Positions 5,505 through 48,311 of a stretch of 64,000 nt of DNA are shown piece by piece. How positions within the stretch are numbered: position 1 is the first letter of the stretch; each line of letters starts with the position of its first letter. The stretch lies in the IMG/VR virus record IMGVR_UViG_3300030098_007301, positions 32,001-96,000 of that record; one strand, given 5' to 3'. Source of the stretch: a virus. A model generated the notes under the pieces. The model was not told the DNA's origin. It saw only the letters and a program-made list of their open reading frames with translations, and did not search any database. The translations under genes were made by a program, and so were the position numbers.

Positions 5505-6517
5505 ACGACTCAAAAACTGGAAATATATTAGGAAAAGACGTAGCTGGGGTTAATTGCATTTTACCCCACAAACATAAAACCGCGTGGGACTTGTTTTTAA
5601 AAGGCTGCGCTAATAACTGGATGCCAACGGAGATATCAATGGCAGACGACATCAAACAATGGAAAAATGGAGACATAACAGATGATGAAAAACTTTTGGT
5701 TAAACGTTCGCTTGGCTTTTTTGCTGGCAGTGAATCTCTCGTTGGTAACAACCTTTTGCTTAGCGGCTTTAGGTATATTACTGATGCTGAATGTCGCCAG
5801 TATATTTTACGACAAGCGTTTGAGGAAAGCCTTCATAATCTTACTATTGTTTACGTTTGCGATTCTTTGGATCTTAAAATAGATGAAGTATATCAAGCTT
5901 ATTTAAATATTCCATCTATCAAGGCCAAAGATGACTTTCTAATGAGCATTACTACTGACCTAAGTAGGCCAGACTTTAATCCTTATACTCAAGAAGGCAA
6001 AAAAGAGATTTTAAGAAATTTCATTACCTATTGGATTGTCTGCGAAGGTATCTTTTTCTTTAGTGGATTTGCAATGCTGCTAGCCCTTGGTCGCCAAAAT
6101 AAAATGCAGGGCGTCGCTGACCAAATTAAATATACCCTCCGCGACGAAAGCTCTCATATTCAGTTCGGCACTTATGTTATTAATCAGATTATAGAGCAGA
6201 ATCCTAAAATCTGGACTAAATCGTTCCAGCAAGAAATAACTGAACATATACAAAAGGCTGTACAGCTTGAAATAGCATACGCTAAAGATGTATTACCTAG
6301 GGGGATTCTTGGTCTTAATGCTGAAATGTTTGTAGATTACATGCACTACATTGGCAATCGTAGGTTAGAAGGCGTTGGCCTTGAATATAGGTTTGAATCG
6401 GATAAAAATCCATTCCCTTGGCTCGGAGAAGTAGTTGACGTTCAAGCTATGGGTAACTTTTTTGAGCGCCGAGTAAGAGAATATCAACAATCTGGTTCCC
6501 TTGAGGATGACTTTTAA
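5501..6517 (+). CDS. nrdB: Class I RNR beta subunit, class Ic (R2c)-type signature
   Basis: NNWMPTE, FFAGSESLV, EESLH, EGIFFFSGF, RDESSH and NFFERRVREY; first metal ligand is Glu78 and the radical-Tyr position is Ile116. Confidence 0.95.
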   Translation: MNDSKTGNILGKDVAGVNCILPHKHKTAWDLFLKGCANNWMPTEISMADDIKQWKNGDITDDEKLLVKRSLGFFAGSESLVGNNLLLSGFRYITDAECRQYILRQAFEESLHNLTIVYVCDSLDLKIDEVYQAYLNIPSIKAKDDFLMSITTDLSRPDFNPYTQEGKKEILRNFITYWIVCEGIFFFSGFAMLLALGRQNKMQGVADQIKYTLRDESSHIQFGTYVINQIIEQNPKIWTKSFQQEITEHIQKAVQLEIAYAKDVLPRGILGLNAEMFVDYMHYIGNRRLEGVGLEYRFESDKNPFPWLGEVVDVQAMGNFFERRVREYQQSGSLEDDF

Positions 6518-6538
6518 TGTAACATCCTATATACAACA

Positions 6539-6733
6539 ATGTCAAGATTCAAATTCTCCAACGAGTCTTTCATGTTGGGCCAAATTTCTTGTGAAATGAT
6601 TGCCCTGTCTCAACATCTAAATGAAAATCACGGACAAAAGCTTAACGGCGAATTAGTTGAATTAGACAAAATAATAAATAGAGTTAATAGAGTTAAAGAG
6701 ATAATGCTAAAAAAGGACAAAGATGATGCCTAA
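6539..6733 (+). CDS. Hypothetical protein (64 aa)
   Basis: ORF in the small-gene cluster. Confidence 0.6.
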   Translation: MSRFKFSNESFMLGQISCEMIALSQHLNENHGQKLNGELVELDKIINRVNRVKEIMLKKDKDDA

Positions 6734-6923
6734 TATATCTGAATTTGAAAGAAATAAACCGATAAAAACTCATAAATCTATTATGGAGGCCAAGGAAAAA
6801 TACGAAAAATTAGTAAAATCCACCGTGGTCATGGAAGACACTGACGCGGTACGCGTTGAAATGGCAAACTGTATTCTCAAAGACCTCAAAGAAATTTATA
6901 AAAATTTCATAGCTGGATTATAA
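6723..6923 (+). CDS. Hypothetical protein (66 aa)
   Basis: Overlapping operon-like ORF. Confidence 0.65.
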   Translation: MMPNISEFERNKPIKTHKSIMEAKEKYEKLVKSTVVMEDTDAVRVEMANCILKDLKEIYKNFIAGL

Positions 6924-6930
6924 TATTCAT

Positions 6931-7146
6931 ATGAATAATCATATCAAGATTATGCTGGAATCCCAAAGGAGATGCGCCTCTGCCATTCAAGATGCAGCAA
7001 ATGATGCTAGAACAGCGGCCGATGCTTCGGCTCAAGAGGCTAAGGATTTTGAAGAAATGGCTCAAGAAGCAGCAAATAGGGCTGTCGAGGCTAACGAAAG
7101 GGTCAAGAAGCTTGAGGCTAAATTAACTGCTTCTACAATAGAATAA
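6931..7146 (+). CDS. Ala/Glu-rich coiled-coil hypothetical protein (71 aa)
   Basis: ORF and composition. Confidence 0.65.
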   Translation: MNNHIKIMLESQRRCASAIQDAANDARTAADASAQEAKDFEEMAQEAANRAVEANERVKKLEAKLTASTIE

Positions 7147-7459
7147 TCTTATTTTCTATTTTTTCGATTAAGTCTTCTTGGTTTTCAAATCTTATAAATT
7201 TAGTAATTATTGTTGACCTTTGACTCCGTACTTTAATATCAAGACCTAACCCGCTTTCCTCCAATGGGATAACTATATCAGAAATGAAATCAAACATACC
7301 TCTTTTTCGCATAAATTCCCAATATATATCTTTCATTTCTGTCTCGCATTCAAGAAGTACGCTCATACCGCAGTCTAATTTAGCGCAAGAAAGTACGTAC
7401 CTAAACGGAAGAGATTCCGTAGGAGGCTCGCACAAAGGAGCATGAACTAATAAGTTCAT
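7133..7459 (-). CDS. Hypothetical protein (108 aa, MNLLVHAPL...), a lone minus-strand gene
   Basis: A start at 7459 avoids overlap with ppa and lies 7 nt after a GTGTAAT motif (7467-7473, minus strand). Confidence 0.7.
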   Translation of the reverse strand: MNLLVHAPLCEPPTESLPFRYVLSCAKLDCGMSVLLECETEMKDIYWEFMRKRGMFDFISDIVIPLEESGLGLDIKVRSQRSTIITKFIRFENQEDLIEKIENKIILL

Positions 7460-7475
7460 ATAAAGTATTACACTT

Positions 7476-8021
7476 ATGACGCAAAGAAATCTAGTAAATG
7501 ACATTCCGATCACAAAAGATGGATTTGCTCATGTAAGCTGCATCGTAGAAATCCCAAAAGGGACTAATACTAAATACGAATATAATGAAAATTATGATAT
7601 TTTTGAATTAGAGAGGTGCTTAGTTTCGTCCTTACAATACCCGATTAACTACGGACTCATAACTCAAACATTTGCCTTGGATAAAGATCCGTTAGACGTT
7701 TTAATATTTAATCACGACCCCATAGACAGGGGAAGTTTGGTCAGATGTAGGGTTTTGGGGGTTCTAGACTTTGTAGATAATGATGAAATAGATTACAAAG
7801 TTATAGCTGTGCCTCATTGGGCTCCAAAAAGCCGCTACCCAAGGCTAAATTCAATAGAGCCAGAACATCTTAAAATATTTAAGCAATTTTTTCGCATTTA
7901 CAAAATAGACAGAGCCAGCACTGTTAAAGTTGGCGAATGGAAAAACGGTAAAAAGGCTACAACGGTAGTTTTGGACGCTCACAATAGATGGCAAGAAAGA
8001 CAAAAAAATGGGAATGTTTGA
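7476..8021 (+). CDS. ppa: Family I soluble inorganic pyrophosphatase
   Basis: VEIPKG, KYEY, YPINYG, DKDPLDV, DNDEIDYKVIAV and YK motifs are all present. Confidence 0.93.
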   Translation: MTQRNLVNDIPITKDGFAHVSCIVEIPKGTNTKYEYNENYDIFELERCLVSSLQYPINYGLITQTFALDKDPLDVLIFNHDPIDRGSLVRCRVLGVLDFVDNDEIDYKVIAVPHWAPKSRYPRLNSIEPEHLKIFKQFFRIYKIDRASTVKVGEWKNGKKATTVVLDAHNRWQERQKNGNV

Positions 8022-8649
8022 TGATATAATTGTACCGAAGTCTTACCTAAAAGGCTTGTTAACAAAAGACCAAGAGAAACTCTTGAAGGGCTCTAGTCGC
8101 TATGGCGGGTCGGTCAGGGGTATCCAGTTTCAAACTAAGTGTTTGGAAAATGCACTCGATCAATACAAAATTTATAAACAGAACCTTTTTATAAATGACA
8201 AGTCTTCATGGAATTGCGAACCCTCAAGCACAGAACAAATAACTGAAGATACCCCCAAAAAATATCCTTACGAAAAAGGCCGCTGGAATAAGGTAGGTCA
8301 TAACGGGGGCGTAAATTTCTATACATCATTTTATGATGAAGATGAAAATGTTTGGTGGGCTGAGTTTAAATTTATTTTTACGAATGGAGTCATAGATAAA
8401 AAAGAATTAATTAAATTCGAAATACAGGAAACTGCTGAAGAAGCAGAGGAGCGAGAAAAAGACTGGGAGGCAGCTAACGCTAAAAAGAGATTATTCCAAC
8501 GAACTTTTAGATATAAATTCTTTTCTAAGCTTACTAAATTGTTAAGAAAACTTTTAAACTGGTCAGAACAAAAGACTTATGTAAACTATATCTCGATGCC
8601 AGCAGAAAAAAGAGAAAAAGAGAAACTTAGCTTCTGGAAGCATTCATGA
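8008..8649 (+). CDS. Phage hypothetical protein (MGMFD...FQTK type)
   Basis: Long ORF with coupled overlaps; N-terminal pattern common in phage hypothetical proteins. Confidence 0.75.
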   Translation: MGMFDDIIVPKSYLKGLLTKDQEKLLKGSSRYGGSVRGIQFQTKCLENALDQYKIYKQNLFINDKSSWNCEPSSTEQITEDTPKKYPYEKGRWNKVGHNGGVNFYTSFYDEDENVWWAEFKFIFTNGVIDKKELIKFEIQETAEEAEEREKDWEAANAKKRLFQRTFRYKFFSKLTKLLRKLLNWSEQKTYVNYISMPAEKREKEKLSFWKHS

Positions 8650-8870
8650 GCATACCTCAAAAAGGGTATAAGGAACTAAAAGAAGATTGCCCGCCTATTC
8701 CCGGCAACACTTGCCCTCACATAGATAAAGCTCAAAAATACCTAGAAGGCTTAAGAGACCAAAATGAAGCGCTTCGAGACATTGGTAAATACTGGAGAGC
8801 TACGGCTATTAACTTACTTCAAGAGTGCTGCGATTTAAACAAGTGTATAAAAGAATTAGAAGATGAATGA
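8646..8870 (+). CDS. Phage hypothetical protein (74 aa, TCPHID...LR..N..LR..G.YW)
   Basis: ATGA-coupled ORF. Confidence 0.7.
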   Translation: MSIPQKGYKELKEDCPPIPGNTCPHIDKAQKYLEGLRDQNEALRDIGKYWRATAINLLQECCDLNKCIKELEDE

Positions 8871-9142
8871 AAAAAGGGTTTACAGTATTGGAGTTTTTAT
8901 TAGCCATTACTGTTATGTTGTTACTAGTTTCTTTATCTTTACAAAGTTATGCAAATGCGAAGCGCCAAGCCAGAATTGCTGCGTGTAAAGTATATAGAAA
9001 ACAAATAGAAACTTTTCACGAAATGCCAGAATATCGCTTACCAACCATATCGGACTCCGACATTAAAGCTTTAGTGAAGACTTACGATCAATGTTACCAA
9101 TGCCACACAACAGCAAGAATCCCTTATTATTACGCAGAATGA
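8867..9142 (+). CDS. Type IV prepilin-like protein with C-terminal CxxCH motif
   Basis: KKG|FTVLE cleavage/methylation motif with Glu5, hydrophobic helix, AKRQARIAAC segment, and CYQCH at 9092-9106. Confidence 0.8.
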   Translation: MKKGFTVLEFLLAITVMLLLVSLSLQSYANAKRQARIAACKVYRKQIETFHEMPEYRLPTISDSDIKALVKTYDQCYQCHTTARIPYYYAE

Positions 9143-9810
9143 AAATATTAATATTTATCCTACTCGCCCCAGCGCTCTACGCACAGACAACTCGATACGA
9201 TAAAATAGTTGAAAGAAACGCTTTCTCTCTCCTAGATAAGCCTCCCGCCAAAGTTGAACTGCCGAAGCTTCTAGAGAAACCGCCTGTTACATTAAATCTT
9301 ACAGGTATTATGACAAGAAGAGGCGTGACTAACGTTTATTTGTTTTCAAAAGATATTCCTAAAAGATTCTTAACTCTTTCTACCAAAAAAAGGACGGATA
9401 GCGGAGTAACTCTTTTAAGCGTAGAGAGAGGTTTAGTGGAGGTAAATAATAACGGCGTAACGGAGCTTCTCTCTTTTGAGACTCATAAGCTGCCCTCTAC
9501 AATTACATTACCCGCCCTCAATACTAAACCGACAGTTGTGAAGAAGAAGGACGATAAAGGTAAATCCACCAAAGTAGCACCGCCAAAACCTAAGGCAAAC
9601 ATAGTTACTGTCCCCTCTAGACGGCCAAAAATAGACCCAAGGATTATTCAAAAAGGGTTGGAGTACATAGACAGAATAGATGATAAAGAAAAAAGAGAAT
9701 ATATCCTTCAAAGATTAGAAAGGCTTCAGAGCGGCCAAGACAAACTGGACAGAAAAATTGACTCTAACGAGAGACGCAGGCAGTATGACGAGCGGCGCCG
9801 AGACAAATGA
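9139..9810 (+). CDS. Exported or membrane-anchored protein resembling GspC/T2SS-accessory proteins
   Basis: Signal-like MKILIFILLAPALYA; YDKIVERNAF, Pro-rich linker and LNLTGI segment; ATGA overlap fixes the start at 9139. Confidence 0.55.
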   Translation: MKILIFILLAPALYAQTTRYDKIVERNAFSLLDKPPAKVELPKLLEKPPVTLNLTGIMTRRGVTNVYLFSKDIPKRFLTLSTKKRTDSGVTLLSVERGLVEVNNNGVTELLSFETHKLPSTITLPALNTKPTVVKKKDDKGKSTKVAPPKPKANIVTVPSRRPKIDPRIIQKGLEYIDRIDDKEKREYILQRLERLQSGQDKLDRKIDSNERRRQYDERRRDK

Positions 9811-10016
9811 AAATCCCTAAACATAATTTAATAGAGTTTGTTAACTTAGTTAACGAGTGCTGCGCTGTCATGGATCATGACTATGTAGGTGAGTGGATAA
9901 ATAAACCCAATCCAGATTTAAACATGGATACGCCCATGGATATATTTAATAATGAAGGAGCGGAGCGCATTTACAGGCTCCTTTATTTTATTGATATTGG
10001 AGAAGCAGACCTTTAG
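9807..10016 (+). CDS. Stand-alone Xre/MbcA/ParS C-terminal (toxin-binding) domain protein
   Basis: EWINKPNPDLNMDTPMDIF...GAERIYRLLYFIDIG matches the W..PN..L...P.d....G...v..lL..i..G pattern. Confidence 0.7.
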   Translation: MKIPKHNLIEFVNLVNECCAVMDHDYVGEWINKPNPDLNMDTPMDIFNNEGAERIYRLLYFIDIGEADL

Positions 10017-13000
10017 GGCTTAGGTACGCTATTTATTACCATTGTGCTTCCGTCTGGGAATTTAGTTCTAGTAACTAGGAACACAGTTCCATTCACTGTC
10101 TCTTCTATGGTATAGTTAACAGTTGCATCAGCGGTGGCCCTAGGCTCAGGGATGCCTTCTGGTATAACTTGATAATCTATAGCTTCTGGAGATAACAATA
10201 CTTCAAAAGATTTGTACGGGACTCCACTCTGAGTCAATCTAGGAGCACCCGTAGGACTAAGTCCAGTGTGGTAAACTGAAACCGAAGCTCCTGAACCATT
10301 TAAAGTTATAGAATTCATTCCTAAAACGTCTGGAGCCCCTACCTCCAACTCCGAAGAAGTCCCTGTAAAATTAACTGAAGCGCCCTGTTCTCCATTAGAA
10401 AATGTTATGTCTGTTATTTCGTCTAATTTATGTCCACTTAGACGAATACTAGTTCCCGGCGCCCCTCTTAGAGGGCCGTATCCTGTCACATAAAAACAAT
10501 CACCAGTATTTACGAAATCTCTAGCATAAGACGTTACTTTTTTATTAGTTATTTTATTTGCAAATTCATCTATTCCAGATTCAGGGAATTTAAAGTCATC
10601 ATAACCTAACACATTAAAAGAATTAACTGGCTCTAAATATGAACCTGTGTTTATTAAACTAAAATTCAATTCCGTATCCTTAAACCAAGGGTCTAATATA
10701 TATATCCTTCCCGACCCTAATAAATCAAGAGGAGATGTTAACTCTATTTCAGAATAAAAAGTATTAGCTACCCCTCCTATTGTAGCAAGACCTGTAGAAT
10801 ATTTATCTATAGGAATAGTTGATTGAATGAAACTGTTTTCAGTATTATCCATGCCTGAATCTGGAACATTTAATATAGAAACGCCAGAGAATGCCACGAG
10901 GCCTAACCCCGACCCCGACATTTCAGAATCGATCAACTGCTCGTCAAAAGTATTTATTCCTGTAACAGTAATTTTTGTTCCCTTTTCAACAAAGAAAGTA
11001 TTATCGTCAGACTTAGCCAAACCCCCGTCTATTCCTGTCACTACTCCTATTGGATAAAATCCACTAGCTTCTATTTGGTTTTGCCTCCCTGACAGTTTAA
11101 TATCCCCATGGTAAATACCAGTAGGGACTCGAACTGAAATTTTTTCTACCCCATTAGCTATCAAGCTCTCAACGTGCGGTTGCACAGTAACATGTCCTCC
11201 AGTAGGATAAGGAAAAAGCACGTCCATGCCAGTTATATTAAATCCAGTAACATCAATGCTTTCATTTGGTATCGCAAAATTATTAAATCCAGAAACTGAT
11301 ATTAAATTTATACCTGTTGAATTACTTTCAGTGAGGCGCCCAAAAGAATCTAAAAGCTGAAATTTTCCGCTCTCACCGTTTATCGACCCGGGGACATTAA
11401 ACCTTAAAGAGTTATACCTTTGAGAAGTAAAAGAATTAAAATCAAAATAATCCGATTCTCCCGAGAATCTAACTCCCGTGACTAAATCCATTCCAGCTCC
11501 GGATATAGTTATCTGATCGTTAGATTTAAAAACTTGAGAATAATCAATTATAGCCGGTTTTACTTCCCCGCTATAATATCCACTAATACTCGGCTTACTT
11601 GGGGCTACAGCCAGAAAACCTGTCGTTTCTAGTATGCCGCCACTAGTATTAACACTAATTGTGTTTGTTTGAGTGTTCTCAGGTACAACAAAATTAAAAC
11701 CTGTTGTAGAGTTTTGGTTTATTTGCGAGACTATAGTATCTCCTATTTTTAACCCATTAGAAACAATGTTCTCAAAATGTCCAGACATAGTGACGGTATC
11801 ACCAAACTCAACGGACTCTGGCTCAAATCCACTTAGGAATGGAGGAGTTAACGCTGTAATGTCTGCATCGCTATCGGTAAGATTGCTTCTGCCTCTCCTA
11901 TTCCTAGCCAAAACCTTGAAGTTAACGCCACTAGGAAAAGAGTCGGGGTATTGAAATTTAATTTGACTATGGTTAGTGTTATTATATCCGCTAGAGGGGA
12001 GCTTTTGAAAAAGCGCATAGCTTCCGAGTCCAGCACCCCCTGTCCACAGCTCGGCTCCTGCTCCGGTATACAAACAGGTCCCCAACATCAAACCCGTTCT
12101 TCCGGGTACTACCTCAGTATCGGGATCTATAGATGTTACAGTGGGAATACCAAAAGAAAAGAATCCATTGGTTCCAGTTACTGAGCCAAAATGCCCAGAT
12201 AACACAACGTCATAAGACTCTCCTAAAGTTCCAAGAGTAGCGGCATTCCCTATTTGAAAACTAAGCTCAAATCCCGGTGTAATCTCAGCTATATTTCCTG
12301 CGCTATATGTCCCTGCCCCAACATTAGAAGAAGCATTTAACAACATATTTACCCCAGTGATGCTGTATAAATTCTTACCACTAATAGTAACAAAATCTCC
12401 AACTACCCCAGATGATGGCGATATTCCATCTATAATAGGCAAACCTATAGTAGGCGTAAAATGGACATTAGAAGGATAAGACTCTGGATAATTATCTGAA
12501 AAGAAGCTAACGACTCCAGAAGATATAGTTGGGTCACTTGAAACGTTACCCCCAGACACCTGTATATTTATACCTGTAGGAATTAATCCTGAAGCGACTT
12601 TATCACTTAATAATTTAAACTCACCCGTTTCTCCCATTACCGTTCCAAGATAATTAGAGCCGGTTTCATATAAAATATCCCCAACAAAATTGTCCCCCGA
12701 GACTAATAAGAAAGTTCCTGTTGATCCCGCGGGTTTAGCAGAAGAAACTCCAACCTGAGAGAACCCTACTCCAGTAATCGTAGCTAAAGGAGAGAGCGCA
12801 AATTTTTGATCCATCTGAGTGAATTGCCCGCTCCTTAACAACAAATCAGCTTGACCCCTTATATTTCCAGATGGAATTTTCACGGTCGCTGTGTTAGCAG
12901 TCAATGTTACGCCTGATATCAAATCGTCATTACTAGCAAACCTTACTCCTGTAACGCCGCTTAAAGAAAACCCTGTTATAGACAAATCTTCACCGGAAGA

Positions 13001-16227: not shown

Positions 16228-16815
16228 ATGGCGTTTGATAACAGTATTTATAATGTAGAAACATGGGTCGCAAATAAGACTTACGTTAAAAATGACATAG
16301 TGGCTCGTATTGAATACGTAGGAGGAGCGGCTGCTACGAACAAAGTCCCCAAAGACGTGAAATACTACTACAACCTAACAGGTGCAAATACAGGCACGGC
16401 ACCTGAATCCGACTCAACAAATTGGGGAGGCTATGTAACAGTTAATAATCAAAAGATTCCCTTATTCCTGTGGAAGCCCTCTTATAATGTTTCTACTCGC
16501 CATAACCCAAAAGTTAATGTTGTTAAATTTGGCAACGGCTACGAGCAAAGAAATCCTGACGGGGTATTTTCGCAGCTTATTGATATAGAAATATCTTTTG
16601 AGAAAAGAACCGAACGAGAAGCTCGAGCTATTTTACATTTTCTTAAAGCTCGCAAAGCGGTAGAGAGCTTTGCCATTAAAGAGCTGCCTAATTTATATGC
16701 AGATAACACAACAGGTGGATTTCGTAAAAGGTTTGTTTGCCCTAACTTTAATAGCACTTTTATATTTTACAACAACTATACCGTAACTGCTACCTTATCG
16801 CAGGAAAACAATTAA
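16228..16815 (+). CDS. Lambda gpM-like minor (distal) tail protein with N-terminal carbohydrate-binding-like module
   Basis: VVKFGNGYEQR and ILHFLKARKAVESF; first gene of the M-L-K-I-J order. Confidence 0.85.
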   Translation: MAFDNSIYNVETWVANKTYVKNDIVARIEYVGGAAATNKVPKDVKYYYNLTGANTGTAPESDSTNWGGYVTVNNQKIPLFLWKPSYNVSTRHNPKVNVVKFGNGYEQRNPDGVFSQLIDIEISFEKRTEREARAILHFLKARKAVESFAIKELPNLYADNTTGGFRKRFVCPNFNSTFIFYNNYTVTATLSQENN

Positions 16816-16820
16816 AATAG

Positions 16821-18035
16821 ATGAATAAAGATCAAGCTCAATCATCAATTAAATCTTTAGCTTTTGAGTTATCAAACTTAACTCCATCAGCGATGGTCAC
16901 TTTATTTGAAATAGATTTATCTGATGTCTTAGATGCCAACTCTATTCCAACTTTAGCCGACGAAGCTTCCGCTATAGGCTTTCCTGATGCGGTTGATAGA
17001 GTATTAAGATTTCACAACAATATTAAAGTATTTAATTCTAAAATTACTTGGAATGGCAATGACTATTACCCTGTTCCTATTCAAGCTACGGGCTTTGAGA
17101 CTTCTAGCAAAGGGACGCTTCCCACCCCTGTCCTAACTATTGCAAGTCAAACCGAAGAAGGTGTCACAATGTTGTCTCTCTTAAAACACCACATTTTAAA
17201 GTATGGAGATATAATTGGAAGCAAGGTTACCCGCAGAAGAACTTTTGCTAAATATTTAGACTGGGTGAACTTTGAATTCGCCACGCAGTCTCCAGCTAAA
17301 AGAGCCTTCTCCCCTCGTATTCAAGAACTACCTGCAGGATACGAACCCGACCCTAATGCGGAACTACCAAAAGATGTTTATTTTATAGAGAGAAAAACGG
17401 GCGAAAATAAAAACACTATACAATATCAATTATCTTCTATTTTAGATTTAGAAGGAGTAAAGATTCCTCGTAGGGTAATAGTAGCCGACAAGTGCAATTG
17501 GCAATACCGCGGTCCGGGCTGTTGGTACCAACACATTGATGAAAGTGAAATTAACTCGTCAGGGAACGCTATCGAGCAAGTCCCTGTTCTACAAAAAGCC
17601 GAGTTAACTACAAAAGAATTCACTCTTCCTAAAGACGCCCCACCTGTCGCTAATGACAAAGACGAATCTATAGTTGGCATCATTGATCATAACGAAGCAA
17701 TCCTAACATCTAATAGAACAGAATGGAAAGCAGACACTACTTATAACAAAGGCGACTATGTTTACATTTTAAAAGATAAAATTAAATATTATTTTGTGGC
17801 AAAAGTTAACATAACCGACGAAGAACAAAACAGGAACAATCCCCCACCTAACACTAATTATTGGGTCGCTGATGTTTGCTCTAAAACTTTAGGCGGGTGT
17901 AGGTTAAGATGGGGAGCAGACAACCCCGGGGCTGCTCCGGGGGCATGCCAAATCGGAGGCCCAGTAACTAATGGAAAAGGAGGCCTGCCTTTTGGAGGAT
18001 TTCCGGCCGCTAGAAAAGTAGCAGGAGGCAGATAA
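16821..18035 (+). CDS. Lambda gpL-like tail tip protein
   Basis: LFEID, YYPVPIQATGFE, KVTRRRTFAKYLD; Cys set CNWQYRGPGC ... DVCSKTLGGCRLR (Fe-S type); LPFGGFP. Confidence 0.92.
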   Translation: MNKDQAQSSIKSLAFELSNLTPSAMVTLFEIDLSDVLDANSIPTLADEASAIGFPDAVDRVLRFHNNIKVFNSKITWNGNDYYPVPIQATGFETSSKGTLPTPVLTIASQTEEGVTMLSLLKHHILKYGDIIGSKVTRRRTFAKYLDWVNFEFATQSPAKRAFSPRIQELPAGYEPDPNAELPKDVYFIERKTGENKNTIQYQLSSILDLEGVKIPRRVIVADKCNWQYRGPGCWYQHIDESEINSSGNAIEQVPVLQKAELTTKEFTLPKDAPPVANDKDESIVGIIDHNEAILTSNRTEWKADTTYNKGDYVYILKDKIKYYFVAKVNITDEEQNRNNPPPNTNYWVADVCSKTLGGCRLRWGADNPGAAPGACQIGGPVTNGKGGLPFGGFPAARKVAGGR

Positions 18036-18036
18036 T

Positions 18037-18765
18037 ATGATATCAGACTTCATAAAAAAAGAGATAAAAGCTCACGCAGAAGAAAACCAAAAAGAAGAAT
18101 CTTGCGGGTTAATTCTTTCAGAGAGTATTGTGAGATGCGCTAACGCTTCAGAAAATCCTGCAAGTCATTTCACTATATCGCCTTTTGATTACTTAAAAGC
18201 TTCGCGCAAAGAAAAGATAAAAGCCGTATACCATACGCACGTTTCGGAAAATAATTATTTTTCAGAAGAAGATAAAAAAATGAGCAGGGGGCATAATTTG
18301 CCTTTTGTTTTATATCATCTAGGGACTAGAAGTTTTTTATGTTTTGACCCTAAAAAAGAAAGAGTAGTTGATATTGATAAAAAATTTGAACTAGGCAAAA
18401 GAGACTGTTATACGCTTGTTAAAGACCATTATAAAAAGCTAGGAATAAAAATCGGAGGAAACAATGACCTCGGAGCAAATTGGCTGAATGAAAACCCTAA
18501 TTTAATTCAAGATCTTTTTAAATTAAATCAGACTTCTTTAGACATAATAGAGATGGAATGGTCTGGAATAGAAATGTTAAAAAGGCATGACGTCATAGTA
18601 TTTGAAATGATAAAAGGAGACGGCCCTTGTCATGTTGGAGTGTATTTAGGAGATGGAATAATGTACCACCATCCTCGAAATAGATTCCCTACTACTGAAA
18701 TGCTAACTCCAGTAATACAAAGAAAAATTTATAAAGTATATAGACACACCCAAATAAATGAATAG
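18037..18765 (+). CDS. Lambda gpK-like tail assembly protein (JAB/MPN plus NlpC/P60)
   Basis: EESCG and JAMM motif HTH-x7-S-x2-D; DCYTLV and HVGVYLGDG..YHH. Confidence 0.92.
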   Translation: MISDFIKKEIKAHAEENQKEESCGLILSESIVRCANASENPASHFTISPFDYLKASRKEKIKAVYHTHVSENNYFSEEDKKMSRGHNLPFVLYHLGTRSFLCFDPKKERVVDIDKKFELGKRDCYTLVKDHYKKLGIKIGGNNDLGANWLNENPNLIQDLFKLNQTSLDIIEMEWSGIEMLKRHDVIVFEMIKGDGPCHVGVYLGDGIMYHHPRNRFPTTEMLTPVIQRKIYKVYRHTQINE

Positions 18766-19519
18766 AGTTCAAGTCACACTACACGGAGTTCTGGCCGACC
18801 AAATAGGACGCAGCCAATGGAGCCTTGTAGCCTCTAATGTAAAAGAAGCTATTAACGGGGTCCAAGCGAACTGTAAAAAACTTTATTCTTACCTGATAGC
18901 TAACGATAAAGAAAAAATAAAATATAGAGTTTTAATTAACGGCGACGATTTTCTTATAGAAGAAGGAAAAAGCCCTAACACTAAAGAAGGACTACAGTCT
19001 TCTCAATTATGCCTTGACCGAATCTCTAACTTAAAAACTATAGATATAATTCCAGTAGTGGAAGGTTCGGACGACTGGTTTGATTGGTTTACAGTGATAT
19101 TAGGAGTTGCTCTAATTTGGGTTGGCGCACCCATGATAGCTACGGCCGGATGGGGAAGTATGTACGGTATGGCTGTCGTTGCAGGTATCGGCCTTGTGGC
19201 AGCAGGAATAACTAATCTACTAACTCCTGATCCAGAATTTGACGACTTTAGAGAAATAGAAGGAGGAGGAAGGCCGCCTTATACGTTTTCGGGGCCTCAA
19301 AACGTAACCAATGAAGGAGGCCCGGTTTTTGTAGGGTACGGAAGGTTGCTTGTCGGCAGTCAAGTCATTCAGGCCGCTACTGATCATTTTAATGAGGACG
19401 CTGGAGTTCCGAAGAATGACGCATGGGGCGATAACCAATATGGATTAAGATATAACATTAATAATATTAATACTAAAGTTAATAATAGAATAAAAGACAT
19501 GCAAAAGGAGATAGAATAA
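18758..19519 (+). CDS. Lambda gpI-like tail assembly protein (ubiquitin-like)
   Basis: VTLHGVL, IDIIPVVEGS, hydrophobic segment, YTFSGPQN and PVFVGYGRLLVGSQVI. Confidence 0.9.
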   Translation: MNRVQVTLHGVLADQIGRSQWSLVASNVKEAINGVQANCKKLYSYLIANDKEKIKYRVLINGDDFLIEEGKSPNTKEGLQSSQLCLDRISNLKTIDIIPVVEGSDDWFDWFTVILGVALIWVGAPMIATAGWGSMYGMAVVAGIGLVAAGITNLLTPDPEFDDFREIEGGGRPPYTFSGPQNVTNEGGPVFVGYGRLLVGSQVIQAATDHFNEDAGVPKNDAWGDNQYGLRYNINNINTKVNNRIKDMQKEIE

Positions 19520-19520
19520 A

Positions 19521-22500
19521 ATGGGAGGATTTGGCGGAGGTGACGAAAGACAGGCTCGGCAAGTAGTAACCGACCAAAGAGGCGTACAATCTGGCGACGC
19601 GCCTAATGAATTAGTTGTATTAGATTCCGACGCGGAGATTATAGATCTGCTAGGAGAAGGGCCTATAGAAGGCATAGTAAGCGGTGTCTATAGTTTTAGC
19701 GGGATAGCTGGATATACTGGATATTTTACGGGCGAAACCTTTACTGCTTATACAGCCACTGGACTGGATGGAAATGGGTCTCCAAGCAGCTCCCCCCAAA
19801 CTACGCTTGGATTTTTAAGGTCTATATATTGGAATAATACTCCCATTGTGGATCAAAATGGATATTATAATTTTACTAACATAAATCTAGAATACTCTAA
19901 AGGCCTACCTGAAGGAAATTTAGCTCAATTAAATAGTAGGCTACCAGCAAGCGAGACTCTAGACTTAACGGTAGAGAGGCAAATCGGTGAGAGGCTTTAC
20001 GGGGTATCAATACAAGGTGGAACAGTTCCATCTGCCACTCAAACCGCAGGGGATTTGGCTGACGACTCAAGAATAGACACTGTAGCTAAAACTTATAGCA
20101 TATTAAATAACGAGTGCACTAAAGCTCAGTTAAGAGTAAGAGTTAGTCAATTATTTGAACAAATTAGAAGCGAGGATGCTCCCAAAGACTTCAAAAAAGG
20201 CAAAAATCCTCCAGCTGTGGGGTATGGAGATATCAAAGCTCGTGAGATAACTTACAATATATATTATCAACCTATTTTTGATTTTTATTCTGATGAAATA
20301 AATGGAGAGCATCCGAAAAACAATTCTTGGACTTTTTTCAAAACTGAAACAATACAAGGACATATAGATCAAATTTATGTTAGATCAACTACTATTGATT
20401 TCTCGGCCGACTACGTAGATCAACCCGGATTCGCAGGTTGGAAAATAAAAGTTATAAGGACTACTCCTGAGTCTTTAACGGCTTATTTAAAAAATGTTTC
20501 TTTTATTGATTCTATAGTAGAAATTTATGGCACGAAACTCCGTTATCCTTATAGCGTTATGGTTTATTCCAAGTTTGATGCTGAATTTTTTAGTCGAGTT
20601 CCGGAAAGATCATACGACACAAAACTGATAAAAGTTAAAATTCCCAATAACTATAACCCAATTTTAAAAACATACGGCAGAAGTGATGCTATTGTTGTTG
20701 GTAATTGGCCTACCGTAACTATAAATACCCAATTAAAAAAAGGTCAGTTAGTATATTTTCGAGGAGGGCAAATTTTAGAAATAGGCGTTGACTACCCAGT
20801 AGGAACTGGAACAATTACTAATGCCAGTACATGGATTAGAGATGGTTGGCAAACTGCATGGGGAGGCTCAGCAATTCTAACGAGTCAAAATAAAGGCCAA
20901 AGACGATACCCTGACGTTACAGGGGAAGTAGGAGCTACAACAGAAGGATGGCTTGGAGTAATCAATGGGCAGAATCATATGGGAACTGCTCCGGATAATT
21001 ACTGGGATGGAGGTTTTAAGGAAATTGAGAGTTGGCAAGCCGGAGCAGATGCCCCAATACCCGGGGCGGGCTCTATAATTGAAAAAAGATGGACAGACAA
21101 CCCAGCTTGGTGTTTTTACGATTTAATCACAAACCCTCGTTATGGGTTGGGGGATTTTGTAGATTCTAGTTTTGTAGATAAATGGGCTTTATATGAAATA
21201 GCTCAATATTGCGACGGGTTAGTTCCAGATGGAGCAGGAGGAGTTGAACCGAGGTTCACAATGAATCACATAATTACTTCTCGCGAGGAAGCTTATAAAG
21301 TTATAAATGATTTGTCTTCTATATTTAGAGGCATTGTCTATTATGCTAACGGGCTAGTATATGCTGTCCAAGATGCATTCAAGACCGCTCTTTACCAATT
21401 CAATAATGCTAATGTAGTAAACGGCGATTTTAACTATTCTTCTTCTGCTAAAAAAGCTCGCCATAGCGTCGCTGTTATTCGTTATATTGATAAATTTAAT
21501 CTTTATAACCCAAGCGTAGAGTACGTAGAAAACGAGGAATCCGTAAAAAGATATGGAATTAGACAAATAGAAACTACTGCGCTGGGGTGCACTAGTCGAG
21601 GTCAAGCTAGACGCTTTGGTGAATGGCTATTGGCTAGCGAGGCCCAAGAAACCGAAAGCGTTACCTTTAATGTAGGTCAGGACGGCGCTTACTTACGGCC
21701 CGGAGACATTGTTCAAATTTATGACCAATTTAGAACTCCTTTAAATTTTAGAGGTAGGACTAACGCTGTAACTCCTCTAGCTACGGCTCCTTCTAATATT
21801 ACTTATCCTTACCCAACGGCTGCAGGAACCGCACATCCCGTTACAGGTAATAGCGTTATTATTGATGGCCCAGTTTCTTTTACAAAAGAACAAGTCTATA
21901 AATTCTCATTGCTAACTCCAACTTACAATTATGAGTCTACTGGTATTACAAACTTAAATTCTGATGATGAAATAAGAAGAAGCAGTGTTCAGAATTTATA
22001 TTTCTTAGGTAACCATACTAGAACTATTTCTGGATACTATAACTCAGATTACCAAGAAGGCGGTAGCGGCATAGTTACGCAAATTTATTTTCACACAGGG
22101 CTAAGGCTCTCTGACGGGAATGCAATTGGAACGGGTAACCAACTTGATTTTGATAATTATGTCATCACCGGATATACAAATGAATACGTCAATGGATCAA
22201 CAGTTCAAGATTATTCAGGGGGCTGTTTTTCAGGCGCTAATCTAGTCTGGAGTGCGGAAGTTAATGATCCAGCAAGCGGCGAATACGTTAGCGGTCACTT
22301 TTCTAATTTTAGAATTATTAACGTAACTGAAAATGATGATTCCGCAAGTTATGCTATTTCAGCTTTAGCGTATTCAACAGGCAAATACGATGAAGTAGAA
22401 AATAGACTCGCTTTTGAAAATATAAGTATAGATGACGTCCCATTATGGCCGCATCAAGTGCATACTAGCGCTCCCAAAACTGGAGTTAATGAATTTGCCT

Positions 22501-25500
22501 CTATTATACTTGCTAGCCCTAACGATAACAATAAGGAACAAGAAAAACTGTTTGGACAATATTCAACTTTTGAAGTTAGGGTGCCTCAAGTCTCTACTCA
22601 ATTAAAAATTGGAACCGAACAAAAAGCTGGAGTTACCTCTCATTATATCAACACTAATGAAAAATATACTCTCCCTAAAAGGATGAGTTATCAGGTTTGT
22701 GTTTTTGAACAAGAAACTTTAGGGAACGGATTTGGCGATTCAAATCTAGCTTTAAGCAATACTTTATTTACAGTAGGAGGAGCTAAAGTCAATACTATTT
22801 TCCACGAGGTTTCTGATGCCAATTATAAAGAACTTTATAGGCCATACGCCCTCTATACGATGGATGGAGACCCAAGTAAAAAAGCTTCTAGCGACGGCTT
22901 TGCAAATGATCAAGTTGGATCAGATATAGGAGCCAGATTTTTCCTTGAAAGGCTTTTGACTAAAGATACTAACTATTGGTTTGCAGTTTTTGCATTTAAC
23001 AACTTCACCCGTTCTCGCCATGCTATTGTTGGCTTAATTTTAGGCTCTGACTACGTAGACACTAATAATTATTTTGCAAGTAATCCGAGCCTGTTAGAAA
23101 AAAATAAAATACCCAAAGAAGAAAATTTTAATCTTATTCAAGGTATTGATATAGAGAGTTTGACCTCTCCTGATTTACTTTCAGCAGCCGACAGTAGCAA
23201 AATTAATGACTTAAATGGGACAGAGCCAGTCTTCAATTGGAATACTAGTAACGAATTAGATTTTAGAGATGACTTTAATAAGCCGCTTCCTATGCCTGTT
23301 GGGCAACAATACCGTATTACTATAAGAAATAATGGAGGGGTCGCCCCATCGGACCACAATCCAGCTTCTAACATATTTGTGGAAATAACGGGGTATGACC
23401 AACCAGATACCGCTGCAGGGTTTGCGTTTATACATGAATACAACAGTCCTCATGTTATTTCTAATTTAGCTGACACCTTACTAACCAATAACGATGTAGT
23501 GGGTTATAAATTAGACGGCACTACGACGACTGACGGCAACAAGGCTACATGGTTAAGAGTAGATAAGAGTGGTATAATATTTAGAAATACTCCCAATAAT
23601 TTTCCATTAAGAGAATTTGATCTTGTTGTGGAAGCGCATGATGGGCTAGGCAGGACCAGCGCCGGAAACCAAATATGGAATAATACAATTAGAGGTGAAG
23701 ATACTAGCAACAACTATTCTGAAGACGATAAAGGCAAAGACGGATACGACTTTTTAAGTTGTAGTATAGGAATACCAAGTGGAGTTGTTTTTGCCCAGTA
23801 CGACAGATTCCCCGATCAAAATAGAGTAGATGATTATAGTTTTATAACGCAAGGCCAAGCTCACTTAAGGAAATACCCATATCTTGCAACCGCTGATGTT
23901 TATACTAACGGCGAACTGCATTTAAAGATGACTACTTCTCAAGATGCGGCCGGAAATACAATATTAACTGAAGAAGAATTAAGAAATGCATTTCCAGATG
24001 TCAGAGGCTTGGTCTATTATTATTCTACCGGCGACAATTCGACTAAAGACTCTGAGGCTAAGAACGGGCTTGTTATTTTTGAACCCAATAATAAAGCTCC
24101 ATCCTTCACAATGCAGCCGGATGAAATAGCAGGATCAAAAAATTTCGGATTACAAGGTAATGTTAAATTTACTACAGACAGCTCTAATGGTAAATATCCA
24201 GACGCTTCATCGCCTGCGCTAACAGATGGCAATGCACCGGATAATGTAACAGTCTATAGATACTATCATCTTTTTGATTCCTCTACTAATCCTGCTAATA
24301 TTGTTATTCCGTTTCCTAAAATAGCAGCAAGCAATGTACAAAACATTTATCTTGCAGTTGGATTATTTGATACGCTTTCTTATTTAGAGCATTTTAATTC
24401 AGATAATACGCCAAAAACAAAAACAGTAACTCCGGGCAATACGGCTAAAACTACTACAACTATGGATATACCGGGAGTCACAATAGCTTTTGATGGCAGT
24501 CGACAAGAGGTGAGTCAAGTTGTTCCTACTATACTATTAGAGCAAAAGATTAATTTTTCTACTTATCCTACAAAAATCTGGGATGAAAATGATAACGACA
24601 AACCTGTTGAGTGGACTTATCCTAACTCTAATTTTGCTGCCGCAAAGGGAACCCCAATTTTCCTCAAAGAGAGCAGTCTTCAAACTAAAGGCCAGTCAGC
24701 TTTAGCTTTTAGAGCTTGGTGGGATGTTACTCTCGACCCCGGAGAGGCTGGTCTTTTTATGGATTTCAGCGCTACATCAAATGGTACACCTGTATATAGA
24801 GGGCCTCATAAGAAGTTAGCAGCACCTAATTCTGATGGCGATTTAGTAGTGCAATACGTTAATAAAAATAAATTCAAAGGAATAGCTAAAATAGATTTCG
24901 AAGTCACGGATTCGTGGAAATACGGAAACAGTGGAAAGTTCCGCCAACTTGTCTCAGGGTTTTTAAAGATTTATTTCGCGCAAAAGCAAGAACAGGAAAA
25001 ATATACTGTTGATGTTGAGTTTAAACAAGCTAATAGCGTTACTTCTAAAGGAGAAATAGTTAAATTAACTGATGGCCAAAATGAAACCAACACGAATCCT
25101 AACGAAAGAGATTTCGTGACTAATGATTATCCACTTGAACAATGCAAGTTAGTAGAAAAATCCAGCGAATACGTTAAATTTTACCTGTCTCCCTTCTTTA
25201 TAAAAGGAACAGATAATAAACTTGCAAATAGAATGGACAATGGAGAGCTTTTCTGGCAAGTTAACTGGCAGCTTCTTGATAACGTCACGAAAATAAACAC
25301 AGGGACAGGTAGTACTGCTTATAATGCAGCACTAGCCGCCACAACAAAAGCCGGAACCGGGAAAAGAATATGGTTTAATGAACGTGAAAATGATCACTGT
25401 TGGTCCAACCCCCACAAAATCAAACAATATATACCCTTCCGCGAATTGGCGAATAACGAGTTTGTGAATGTGACACTCGTAGTAGATGCAGGAGACCTTG

Positions 25501-25862
25501 GCGGATATAGACGTCCTTGCAAATTAACTTTTAAATTAAATTCCGGTTTCTATAGTTCTAGCAACAACAGTTTAGTAAAAAAGGCTTGGCCGATAAATGG
25601 ATCTTTTAACATCTCCGTGCATAAATTCGTAGATGCCACTAGTACAGAATTTTATATAGCAAACAGCATAACAAGCAGGTACGGAACGCTAAATATAACC
25701 TACGGAAGCCCTAACAGCCCCCTTGACCCAGTTGGGTTAGAGAAAGACGTGGGAGAGGCTAAAGGAAGTATAAACGATAAGCGTACAAACTTTGCAGGCA
25801 ACATCATCAAAATAAAAGGCGGAATCCTACAAACTGATACTTTTGACGTTGTCCCTAGATAG
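19521..25862 (+). CDS. Lambda gpJ-like central tail tip / host-specificity protein (2113 aa)
   Basis: DLLGEGPIEG, WTDNPAWCFYDLITNPRYGLG, EPRFT, GCTSRGQARRFGEW and LRPGDIVQI. Confidence 0.93.
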   Translation: MGGFGGGDERQARQVVTDQRGVQSGDAPNELVVLDSDAEIIDLLGEGPIEGIVSGVYSFSGIAGYTGYFTGETFTAYTATGLDGNGSPSSSPQTTLGFLRSIYWNNTPIVDQNGYYNFTNINLEYSKGLPEGNLAQLNSRLPASETLDLTVERQIGERLYGVSIQGGTVPSATQTAGDLADDSRIDTVAKTYSILNNECTKAQLRVRVSQLFEQIRSEDAPKDFKKGKNPPAVGYGDIKAREITYNIYYQPIFDFYSDEINGEHPKNNSWTFFKTETIQGHIDQIYVRSTTIDFSADYVDQPGFAGWKIKVIRTTPESLTAYLKNVSFIDSIVEIYGTKLRYPYSVMVYSKFDAEFFSRVPERSYDTKLIKVKIPNNYNPILKTYGRSDAIVVGNWPTVTINTQLKKGQLVYFRGGQILEIGVDYPVGTGTITNASTWIRDGWQTAWGGSAILTSQNKGQRRYPDVTGEVGATTEGWLGVINGQNHMGTAPDNYWDGGFKEIESWQAGADAPIPGAGSIIEKRWTDNPAWCFYDLITNPRYGLGDFVDSSFVDKWALYEIAQYCDGLVPDGAGGVEPRFTMNHIITSREEAYKVINDLSSIFRGIVYYANGLVYAVQDAFKTALYQFNNANVVNGDFNYSSSAKKARHSVAVIRYIDKFNLYNPSVEYVENEESVKRYGIRQIETTALGCTSRGQARRFGEWLLASEAQETESVTFNVGQDGAYLRPGDIVQIYDQFRTPLNFRGRTNAVTPLATAPSNITYPYPTAAGTAHPVTGNSVIIDGPVSFTKEQVYKFSLLTPTYNYESTGITNLNSDDEIRRSSVQNLYFLGNHTRTISGYYNSDYQEGGSGIVTQIYFHTGLRLSDGNAIGTGNQLDFDNYVITGYTNEYVNGSTVQDYSGGCFSGANLVWSAEVNDPASGEYVSGHFSNFRIINVTENDDSASYAISALAYSTGKYDEVENRLAFENISIDDVPLWPHQVHTSAPKTGVNEFASIILASPNDNNKEQEKLFGQYSTFEVRVPQVSTQLKIGTEQKAGVTSHYINTNEKYTLPKRMSYQVCVFEQETLGNGFGDSNLALSNTLFTVGGAKVNTIFHEVSDANYKELYRPYALYTMDGDPSKKASSDGFANDQVGSDIGARFFLERLLTKDTNYWFAVFAFNNFTRSRHAIVGLILGSDYVDTNNYFASNPSLLEKNKIPKEENFNLIQGIDIESLTSPDLLSAADSSKINDLNGTEPVFNWNTSNELDFRDDFNKPLPMPVGQQYRITIRNNGGVAPSDHNPASNIFVEITGYDQPDTAAGFAFIHEYNSPHVISNLADTLLTNNDVVGYKLDGTTTTDGNKATWLRVDKSGIIFRNTPNNFPLREFDLVVEAHDGLGRTSAGNQIWNNTIRGEDTSNNYSEDDKGKDGYDFLSCSIGIPSGVVFAQYDRFPDQNRVDDYSFITQGQAHLRKYPYLATADVYTNGELHLKMTTSQDAAGNTILTEEELRNAFPDVRGLVYYYSTGDNSTKDSEAKNGLVIFEPNNKAPSFTMQPDEIAGSKNFGLQGNVKFTTDSSNGKYPDASSPALTDGNAPDNVTVYRYYHLFDSSTNPANIVIPFPKIAASNVQNIYLAVGLFDTLSYLEHFNSDNTPKTKTVTPGNTAKTTTTMDIPGVTIAFDGSRQEVSQVVPTILLEQKINFSTYPTKIWDENDNDKPVEWTYPNSNFAAAKGTPIFLKESSLQTKGQSALAFRAWWDVTLDPGEAGLFMDFSATSNGTPVYRGPHKKLAAPNSDGDLVVQYVNKNKFKGIAKIDFEVTDSWKYGNSGKFRQLVSGFLKIYFAQKQEQEKYTVDVEFKQANSVTSKGEIVKLTDGQNETNTNPNERDFVTNDYPLEQCKLVEKSSEYVKFYLSPFFIKGTDNKLANRMDNGELFWQVNWQLLDNVTKINTGTGSTAYNAALAATTKAGTGKRIWFNERENDHCWSNPHKIKQYIPFRELANNEFVNVTLVVDAGDLGGYRRPCKLTFKLNSGFYSSSNNSLVKKAWPINGSFNISVHKFVDATSTEFYIANSITSRYGTLNITYGSPNSPLDPVGLEKDVGEAKGSINDKRTNFAGNIIKIKGGILQTDTFDVVPR

Positions 25863-25877
25863 AGATATAATTAATAA

Positions 25878-26744
25878 ATGCATTCTACATCTTTTTCAGG
25901 GAGCATAAAGAACGGAAGTAAGGAACTCTATTCTTCTACTAATTTTATGGTAACAACACCAAACGGGTGTTACGTAAAAATTGGAAGAAACGAGGTCTTT
26001 TACCAAGTAGAATCATCGCGAACCTTACAATTAAAAAAGAAATTTAAATGTTATGGCGATCATATAATTTTAAAAGGAGACTATTCCGCTCAAATATCTG
26101 AAGGAGATTCAGCTAAATTATATTTCTCCGAAAAAGAATTAGTTTACGTTAGCGAAATAGTAAAAAACAAAAAAGATAGTGTTTTCGGCGAGATTTTCAC
26201 ATTAGAGGGAGGGAATTTATCCAGCTCCCAAAATAACCTAACAGGTTCGGCCGCTAAAATAAAAGTCACCGCGGTCAATAAAGAAAAAGAAATACAAGAA
26301 ACCTTAATATATGAAGGAGGAGGCTATTTAAATCCCCCCGAAAACCCCGTAACAGCAGTCAACGAATCAGGACAACGGATTCAATTAAATCTTGAGTTTG
26401 ATAACGCCGCCGAAAGCTCCTTATTTGAAAGAGACTTTAGACTAGTAGATTTTAAAGACGGCGAAACACGACTAGATATGTCTTACAATTTCCCTAAGCC
26501 TATAACTGAAGGGGAACTAATTTTATCTAAAAAAATTATAGTATTAGAAAGAGAATACTCAGGTAAGACAGTATTTAATGTACCGTGCCAAACCAGCTCA
26601 GATTTTTCGCCGATCAATAGCATCCCTCTAATGCCTCCCTATTGCGTAGCTCCTCATGCAATTTATAATAAAGCAATGGAAACAATAGATAAAAAGCTAC
26701 AAGAAATGAATCTTGAAATAGCTAAATTAAAACAGCGCCGTTAG
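25878..26744 (+). CDS. Hypothetical tail-associated protein (288 aa)
   Basis: Follows J; convergent with the TMP, with a 4-nt stop overlap. Confidence 0.7.
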   Translation: MHSTSFSGSIKNGSKELYSSTNFMVTTPNGCYVKIGRNEVFYQVESSRTLQLKKKFKCYGDHIILKGDYSAQISEGDSAKLYFSEKELVYVSEIVKNKKDSVFGEIFTLEGGNLSSSQNNLTGSAAKIKVTAVNKEKEIQETLIYEGGGYLNPPENPVTAVNESGQRIQLNLEFDNAAESSLFERDFRLVDFKDGETRLDMSYNFPKPITEGELILSKKIIVLEREYSGKTVFNVPCQTSSDFSPINSIPLMPPYCVAPHAIYNKAMETIDKKLQEMNLEIAKLKQRR

Positions 26745-41293: not shown

Positions 41294-41300
41294 ATTACAC
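41294..41300 (-). promoter_or_regulatory. GTGTAAT motif overlapping the last codon and stop of the fibre gene
   Basis: GTG TAA T, 10 nt before the start at 41283. Confidence 0.55.
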
Positions 41301-48302: not shown

Positions 48303-48311
48303 TATAAATCC

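Follow-up and report, generated by a model that had tools for sequence, protein, structure and literature searches.

What might a phage gain from a protein of 91 residues that begins like a type IV prepilin and carries, close to its end, a CxxCH motif of the kind to which haem c is attached? Such a protein is encoded in the stretch of viral DNA analysed here (64,000 nucleotides; hereafter the window), and the initial annotation had read it as a minor pilin or pseudopilin supplied by the phage, possibly bearing a haem. Rereading the open reading frame bore out its description: the protein opens with MKKG/FTVLE (the slash marks the predicted cleavage site), continues through a hydrophobic helix (F5-L25) and the segment AKRQARIAAC (A31 to C40) to M53-PEY, and reaches CYQCH (C76-YQ-C79-H80), after which comes a Tyr-rich tail of 11 residues. 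We refer to this protein as the mini-pilin; its features and those of its two immediate neighbours are collected in Table 1.

Table 1. Features of the mini-pilin gene and its flanking genes, with positions in the window
Feature	Position	Strand	Basis or remark
Upstream gene, 74-aa Cys-rich protein, no signal peptide	8646-8870	+	Stop overlaps mini-pilin start
Mini-pilin gene, 91 aa (stop included)	8867-9142	+	ATG-started ORF; 72 homologues; dN/dS; ATGA overlap on either side
Class III (prepilin) signal with leader MKKG; cleavage predicted ahead of F5; E9 (+5) invariant	8867-8893	+	TIGR02532, conservation
Long alpha-1 helix, ~residues 5-52, predicted; its initial 20 residues form the segment in the membrane or fibre core	8879-9022	+	AlphaFold2, PDB profile matches
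Cys40 (mature position 36), invariant	8984-8986	+	Alignments including distant relatives
M53-P54-E55 turn motif	9023-9031	+	P-E invariant; M invariant in main clade, Val in P0079
Second helix, residues 63-80, predicted, with the motif at its end	9053-9106	+	AlphaFold2, pLDDT ~67-78
C76-Y-Q-C79-H80, candidate covalent haem c site	9092-9106	+	Conservation; weak match to E. coli Ccp/YhjA N-terminal haem site
Downstream gene for a secreted protein of 223 aa with type I signal peptide MKILIFILLAPALYAQ	9139-9810	+	Start overlaps mini-pilin stop (ATGA)

A pilin-like gene family of marine phages

The mini-pilin is a real gene under strong purifying selection, because comparison with nine relatives gave dN/dS values of 0.06-0.17 (at dS of 0.4-2.0, with synonymous sites near saturation), because it has homologues and because it is embedded in a chain of overlapping genes. 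That chain comprises five genes and runs from an inorganic pyrophosphatase gene (start at 7476) to position 10016. Within it the ATG of the mini-pilin overlaps the stop codon of the gene upstream (ATGA, 8867-8870), and its own stop codon overlaps the ATG of the gene downstream (ATGA, 9139-9142). A scan of positions 6400-10300 for promoters and terminators yielded nothing above shuffled sequences.

A word-based search recovered 72 homologues with 62-92% identity, all of which come from metagenomes of marine origin or from viral contigs, many of them from Tara Oceans; the cluster names and contig records of the relatives point to marine metagenome sources only. Relatives are carried by 16 IMG/VR contigs, the longest of which is 170 kb and rated 100% complete. 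The most distant members, P0078, P0079 and P0082, share 33-45% identity by tblastn. The contigs of P0078 and P0082 are only ~1 kb each, and P0079, found on long contigs, lies amid phage genes for rIIB, a T4-type spanin and a pyrophosphatase. An exhaustive profile search with the C-terminal 65 residues only, against 1.84 billion representatives, returned 11 matches, and the seven short ones are the mini-pilin family itself or its fragments; for the C-terminal part, this search brought up no homologue of cellular origin. Four long matches (P0076, P0080, P0081 and P0083) lack CxxCH and were set aside as repeat-protein artefacts. Nor did we find longer cellular proteins that share the N-terminal 52 residues. 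The family is confined to phage contigs.

The placement of this locus in a phage agrees with the rest of the window, which also encodes a ribonucleotide reductase and lambda-type tail-tip genes (PHROGs 14, 18, 30 and 32), and with the presence of relatives on IMG/VR viral contigs. The phage isolate database contains no DNA or protein match to the locus or to the mini-pilin, PHROGs has no family for it, and a scan of IMG/VR with the distant relative P0079 returned no match. One further candidate locus, L016, proved to be a spurious N-terminal match without an open reading frame.

The presence of a prepilin-type signal, the second element of the initial annotation, is upheld by a family model and by conservation. 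TIGR02532 (prepilin N-terminal cleavage/methylation domain) recognizes the mini-pilin with 17.2 bits at a cut-off of 16.3; F5 (+1), T6 (+2) and E9 (+5) are invariant among 27 aligned sequences; and the residue at position -1 is a G in 47 homologues, an A in 14 and an S in 7. The Pfam model N_methyl (PF07963) gives the window protein a score of 15.3, below the gathering score of 21.2, and scores above it for the relatives P0078 (26.5) and P0079 (24.0). A holin or antiholin-type single-pass protein was considered and rejected, the residues of the class III signal being the most conserved part of the mini-pilin.

AlphaFold2, run with the 27 sequences (mean pLDDT 76, and 77-97 over residues 1-40), predicts a helix over residues 7-52, in which the hydrophobic stretch runs on into an amphipathic part as is usual for alpha-1, a turn at about residues 57-62, a second helix over residues 63-80 and a disordered tail. 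The model shows no antiparallel sheet and no globular head of alpha-beta type. Because it gives two helices and no beta-sheet head, the mini-pilin is, as far as the prediction holds, a pilin without a head, comparable to PilA-N, ComGC and the 60-residue PilA fragments of phages. Its best family matches are small helical pilins of the ComGE and ComGC type (NCBIfam), all below the family cut-offs, and its profile matches only pilin N-termini in the PDB, the best being Geobacter PilA-N (9egp). A fold search with the model against the PDB returned nothing at E <= 0.001 and only generic helical matches. Geobacter PilA-N (9egp, 7tgg, 2m7g) and ComGC/ComGE resemble the mini-pilin in having a class III signal, a long alpha-1 helix and little else. 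However, the matches to these proteins cover residues 2-64 only and remain below family cut-offs, and the proteins themselves lack CxxCH.

In the complete 170-kb relative the mini-pilin is the sole gene with a class III signal. Across four phage records we found no match to Peptidase_A24 (prepilin peptidase, PilD), to T2SSE (pilus ATPase) or to Cytochrom_C_asm (CcsA/CcmF, cytochrome c synthase). Since these phages encode neither a prepilin peptidase nor a pilus ATPase, processing and assembly of the mini-pilin must use host proteins, and since they encode no cytochrome c synthase, attachment of haem would likewise rely on the host. As to which bacteria these hosts might be, the AKRQARIAAC segment had initially been likened to the expanded prepilin-like families of Verrucomicrobia and Planctomycetes. 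This likeness was not borne out, as neither DUF1559 (PF07596) nor HX9DG (TIGR04294) matches the mini-pilin; the resemblance at the N-terminus had been drawn from what we take to be the consensus of those families. The window contains no tRNA genes.

The CxxCH motif and the third cysteine

Of the 72 homologues, 68 keep CxxCH. The four exceptions comprise two fragments at contig ends, truncated or chimeric, and two full-length proteins, P0050 and P0070, with the variants CYKFD and CFDCP. The distant relatives P0078, P0079 and P0082 all retain C40, P-E and CxxCH; with them included, the invariant columns are the signal residues, C40, P-E and CxxCH, and no others. C40 is invariant throughout the alignments, and M53 is replaced by Val in P0079. 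Within the motif the first variable position is aromatic and the second is free to vary, and a small residue follows the His. Among the proteins of the window, CxxCH occurs once in 20,251 residues, against 0.008 occurrences expected from composition. The motif in the mini-pilin is not there by chance, and the initial reading, which loss of the motif among homologues would have undermined, withstands the comparison with them, distant ones included. The initial description of a prepilin "fused to" a CxxCH motif needs qualification: the motif is present, but it ends a single helix and no recognisable cytochrome domain surrounds it.

Does the motif belong to a cytochrome? No cytochrome family model in Pfam, NCBIfam or the PDB profiles is significant for the mini-pilin or its relatives, and a profile of the C-terminal part identifies no cytochrome among PDB sequences; none is found by fold either. 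Sub-threshold matches were obtained to Cytochrome_CBB3 (E 0.034), Haem_bd (E 0.03-0.13, in three of seven family members), P460 (E 0.032), Tll0287 (E 0.0035) and HmcA (E 0.009), and those to Haem_bd, Cytochrome_CBB3, P460 and Tll0287 fall exactly at CxxCH. The Haem_bd-carrying protein of E. coli is Ccp/YhjA, whose N-terminal haem site reads CDYCHTPSAELPAYYY. When compared by hhalign, the site CDYCHTPSAELPAYY of this protein aligns with mini-pilin residues 74-89 over 16 columns at 50% identity, with a pairwise E of 0.0011 and a probability of 20%. The similarity of the tail extends to only part of the family, with shuffle p values of 0.009-0.04 in two members and no significance in four. A search for Haem_bd in five unrelated genomes, intended for a comparison profile, gave no match.

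The N-terminal haem of YhjA and its Met125 ligand (in E-T-M-P-P) have been established by experiment (PMC10301912). Like the mini-pilin, Ccp/YhjA (Haem_bd, PF14376) has a membrane helix followed by a helix that ends in CxxCH-T-x-x-A-x-x-P-x-YY, and the Met-Pro motif that supplies its distal ligand (M125) has a counterpart in the M-P of the mini-pilin. However, the order of Met-Pro and CxxCH is reversed between the two proteins, the similarity of the Met loop to that around M125 is not significant (p 0.48), and the mini-pilin matches ~16 of the 133 positions of Haem_bd, a likeness below significance.

We put it slightly short of an even chance that cytochrome c synthase of the host links haem by covalent bonds to C76 and C79, H80 serving as its axial ligand. 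The His that directly follows the second Cys has the geometry of haem c; the motif ends a helix in the AlphaFold2 model and has a predicted periplasmic location; it is both widely conserved and unique in the window proteome; and its weak local likeness is to genuine haem c sites (Haem_bd, Cytochrome_CBB3, P460, Tll0287 and YhjA). Bacterial CcsBA attaches haem to CXXCH peptides of as few as nine residues and needs only two thiols and a His (PMC8112865). A structural role for such a haem would also have a precedent. TfcP of Myxococcus xanthus is a His/Cys-ligated cytochrome c that is needed for the stability of minor pilins and PilY1 (bioRxiv 10.1101/2021.07.28.454143); in this case a c-type haem protein has a structural, not a respiratory, part in type IV pilus assembly. 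Unlike the mini-pilin, TfcP is a soluble protein with a type I signal peptide, contains a complete cytochrome c domain, and is neither a pilin nor encoded by a phage. Its distal ligand is a Cys, which suggests a possible role for Cys40; in the mini-pilin either M53 or C40 could be the distal ligand, and the haem could substitute for the missing beta-sheet domain, either as the hydrophobic core of a tiny head or as a redox group. Against haem stand the lack of any significant cytochrome model together with a YhjA match that is improbable and partial in the family, the replacement of M53 by Val in P0079, and the two full-length homologues without the motif. In addition, the third invariant Cys makes the count odd, and C40 has no explanation under haem other than as a distal ligand of the TfcP kind; a disulfide or a metal site would also fit the three cysteines.

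The latter reading, which we regard as the main and a serious rival although somewhat less likely than haem, retains the same mini-pilin with a cluster of three cysteines and a His that holds no haem. A disulfide between C40 and C76 or C79 would staple the second helix to alpha-1, as a minimal version of the disulfide of pilins, and the remaining Cys and the His would coordinate a metal or join the protein to a partner. ComGC of B. subtilis has an intramolecular disulfide, and it is proteins of the ComGE/ComGC type that are the best family matches of the mini-pilin, whereas cytochrome models are not significant. The invariant cysteines number three, not two, and by simple geometry an antiparallel hairpin would bring residue 76 opposite approximately residue 40. 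However, a disulfide leaves the near-invariant His immediately after the second Cys without explanation, as it does the invariance of both C76 and C79, and an adjacent Cys and His seldom ligate one metal ion. The ability of bacterial synthases to modify even nine-residue CXXCH peptides counts against this reading as well.

Possible action on the host

The explanation that we favor, with confidence and doubt about evenly balanced, is that these phages make a minimal type IV pilin-like protein that enters or jams the fibre machine of the host, with a haem site as the likeliest reading of its CxxCH. We envision that the mini-pilin inserts into the inner membrane of the infected cell with its N-terminus inside and its C-terminus outside. 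This topology, expected of a pilin with a basic N-terminus and a single membrane helix, would expose CxxCH to the periplasm, on a hairpin that carries Cys40 and C76xxC79H80. Host prepilin peptidase would then cut the protein after Gly4, and the headless subunit would enter, or dock on, the assembly machine of a type IV pilus or a type II secretion system. By analogy with known phage pilins, the most likely pay-off would be a host fibre that is remodelled or blocked, for example such that a receptor is masked and other phages are excluded.

A minor pilin supplied by a phage for the purpose of exclusion would have a published precedent in P-FimU of F10-like prophages of Pseudomonas, which replaces a host subunit and blocks phages that bind the pilus tip (Sztanko et al., Cell Rep 2026, PMC12952977). 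The same study describes P-PilA of Xylella prophages and a truncated PilA of 60 residues from virulent Pseudomonas phages; exclusion of pilus-binding phages was shown for P-FimU and proposed for truncated PilA (PMC12952977). Like these proteins, the mini-pilin is a phage-encoded type IV pilin-like subunit that depends on an assembly machine of the host, and the truncated PilA group, which occurs in non-temperate phages, is headless as the mini-pilin is. However, no sequence relation to P-FimU, P-PilA or truncated PilA is detectable beyond the N-terminal signal, and unlike them the mini-pilin comes from a marine setting and conserves a second helix of its own together with Cys40, P-E and CxxCH. 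The role of phage pilins in competition between phages has only just been shown, and only in Pseudomonas and Xylella; the mini-pilin family extends the idea to large and very abundant ocean phages at many Tara Oceans sites.

Phage pilins are known; what is new here is the CxxCH motif on a phage pilin beside a third invariant Cys, with haem binding that is putative and proposed from sequence. An invariant haem-type CxxCH together with a third invariant Cys, in a head of ~60 residues, is a feature that we found described for no pilin, and our literature search likewise found no published pilin that bears haem or a haem motif. If haem is attached, the mini-pilin would be the smallest natural hybrid of a pilin and a cytochrome, and its two helices would offer a simple scaffold on which fibres decorated with haem could be studied or engineered. 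Without haem, it would still be an unannotated phage tool, putatively directed against host pili or type II secretion.

In its strongest form the proposal has a haem-bearing pilin that is processed by prepilin peptidase and built into the host pilus or pseudopilus, giving a fibre with covalent haems. We consider this outcome unlikely. If true, such a fibre would be a natural cytochrome-pilin hybrid from widespread marine phages, with a possible role in redox, haem or iron functions or in altering receptors.

The protein might instead be no fibre subunit at all, its class III signal serving only to tether a mini-cytochrome to the inner membrane on the outer side, from which it would tap or sense the respiratory or redox chain of the host in the manner of an auxiliary metabolic gene product. 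In keeping with this, the gene lies in a variable metabolic and accessory island (pyrophosphatase, ribonucleotide reductase and, in relatives, the genes for serine hydroxymethyltransferase and a dioxygenase that are described below), and its best local match falls in the N-terminal haem domain of E. coli Ccp/YhjA, which is anchored in the membrane (PMC10301912). However, the family shows little or no variation in E at +5, F at +1 and the small residue at -1, and this conservation is needed for recognition by the peptidase and for fibre assembly and not for a plain anchor; moreover, no cytochrome fold or family was detected. We judge an anchored cytochrome decidedly unlikely.

Neighbouring genes and the variable island

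The secreted 223-aa protein encoded immediately downstream follows the mini-pilin directly in 17 loci, and the lineages of P0079 and P0082 lack it. Metagenomes supply 888 homologues of this protein, but it has no match in Pfam, NCBIfam, PHROGs or the PDB, and no fold assignment; AlphaFold2 gave a pLDDT of 51, unusable for the N-terminal domain, and a scan of genome contigs with this protein found no relative. Its N-terminal part is beta-rich and is joined by a linker rich in Lys and Pro to a helical, charged C-terminus. Identification as GspC/PilP found no support, as there is no match to these models and the nearest named Atlas cluster, at 0.82 (XpsN), is within the chance range. The arrangement raises the idea of a split pilin, in which the mini-pilin would be the helix and the coupled secreted protein the head, as in Geobacter PilA-N/PilA-C. 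This we consider very unlikely: the two genes share an ATGA start/stop overlap, their pairing reaches as far as the 45%-identical P0078 locus, and PilA-N is the best PDB match of the mini-pilin helix, but two lineages have the mini-pilin without this neighbour, a serine hydroxymethyltransferase gene separates the pair in locus L007, and the neighbour, whose model is of low confidence, has no similarity to a pilin head or to GspC/PilP. A complex prediction for the mini-pilin head and the downstream protein scored 0.00, below the mark, and speaks neither for nor against binding.

The 74-aa gene upstream is present in most relatives, including the P0078 locus, although not in all, and has no family match. 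Its product has conserved cysteines (CPPIPGNTCP ... ECCDLNKC), and the gene is translationally coupled to that of the mini-pilin.

In locus L010 (7018-8001), and also in L011, a gene for a prepilin-like protein of 327 aa is inserted just upstream of the mini-pilin. This protein scores 38.3 bits with N_methyl, and its N-terminus aligns with that of the mini-pilin at 95.6% probability (hhalign) with a Cys and KQ[LI] in register, the Cys occupying the same mature position 36 as Cys40 of the mini-pilin. Given this second prepilin-like protein beside the first, the island around the mini-pilin collects proteins with class III signals, which fits an interaction with the pilus or secretion machine of the host. 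A scan of genome contigs with the 327-aa protein returned generic pilin N-termini in unrelated phyla, none of them with the Cys. The DUF1559 and HX9DG models do not match this protein either; an H-x9-DG-like string is discernible by eye near its C-terminus.

The island appears to be a preferred site for the uptake of auxiliary genes. Its accessory genes vary among loci and include a serine hydroxymethyltransferase gene (glyA, identified by reading of the sequence) at 5899-7089 in L007, a PKHD-type Fe(II) dioxygenase gene at 6558-7187 in L013 and a cupin gene at 9256-9639 in L010. The inorganic pyrophosphatase of the window is encoded by the phage (7476-8021, + strand; Pfam E 2.3e-42), with 78-96% identity to that of close relatives and 56% to that of distant P0079-type phages (L018 and L019). 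At the other end of the gene chain, positions 9807-10016 (+ strand) encode a 69-aa protein that matches, below threshold, the C-terminal domain of Xre/MbcA/ParS antitoxins (Pfam E 0.0023; NCBIfam E 0.00011). No toxin gene adjoins it, and a 46%-identical copy occurs in distant P0079-type phages (L017 and L020).

Elsewhere in the window, the tail-tip set is followed by a J-like protein or fibre of 2113 aa, and other giant open reading frames encode proteins of 2248, 2335 and 4239 aa. The tail-tip genes and giant frames lie at 16228-25862 (+ strand), 26741-33487 (- strand) and 41295-61031 (- strand), in a genome of ~170 kb. Finally, a related IMG/VR record of 144 kb (G002, which holds locus L005) is classed as a provirus; if this classification is correct, it would point to a temperate lifestyle and possibly to the presence of host flanks.
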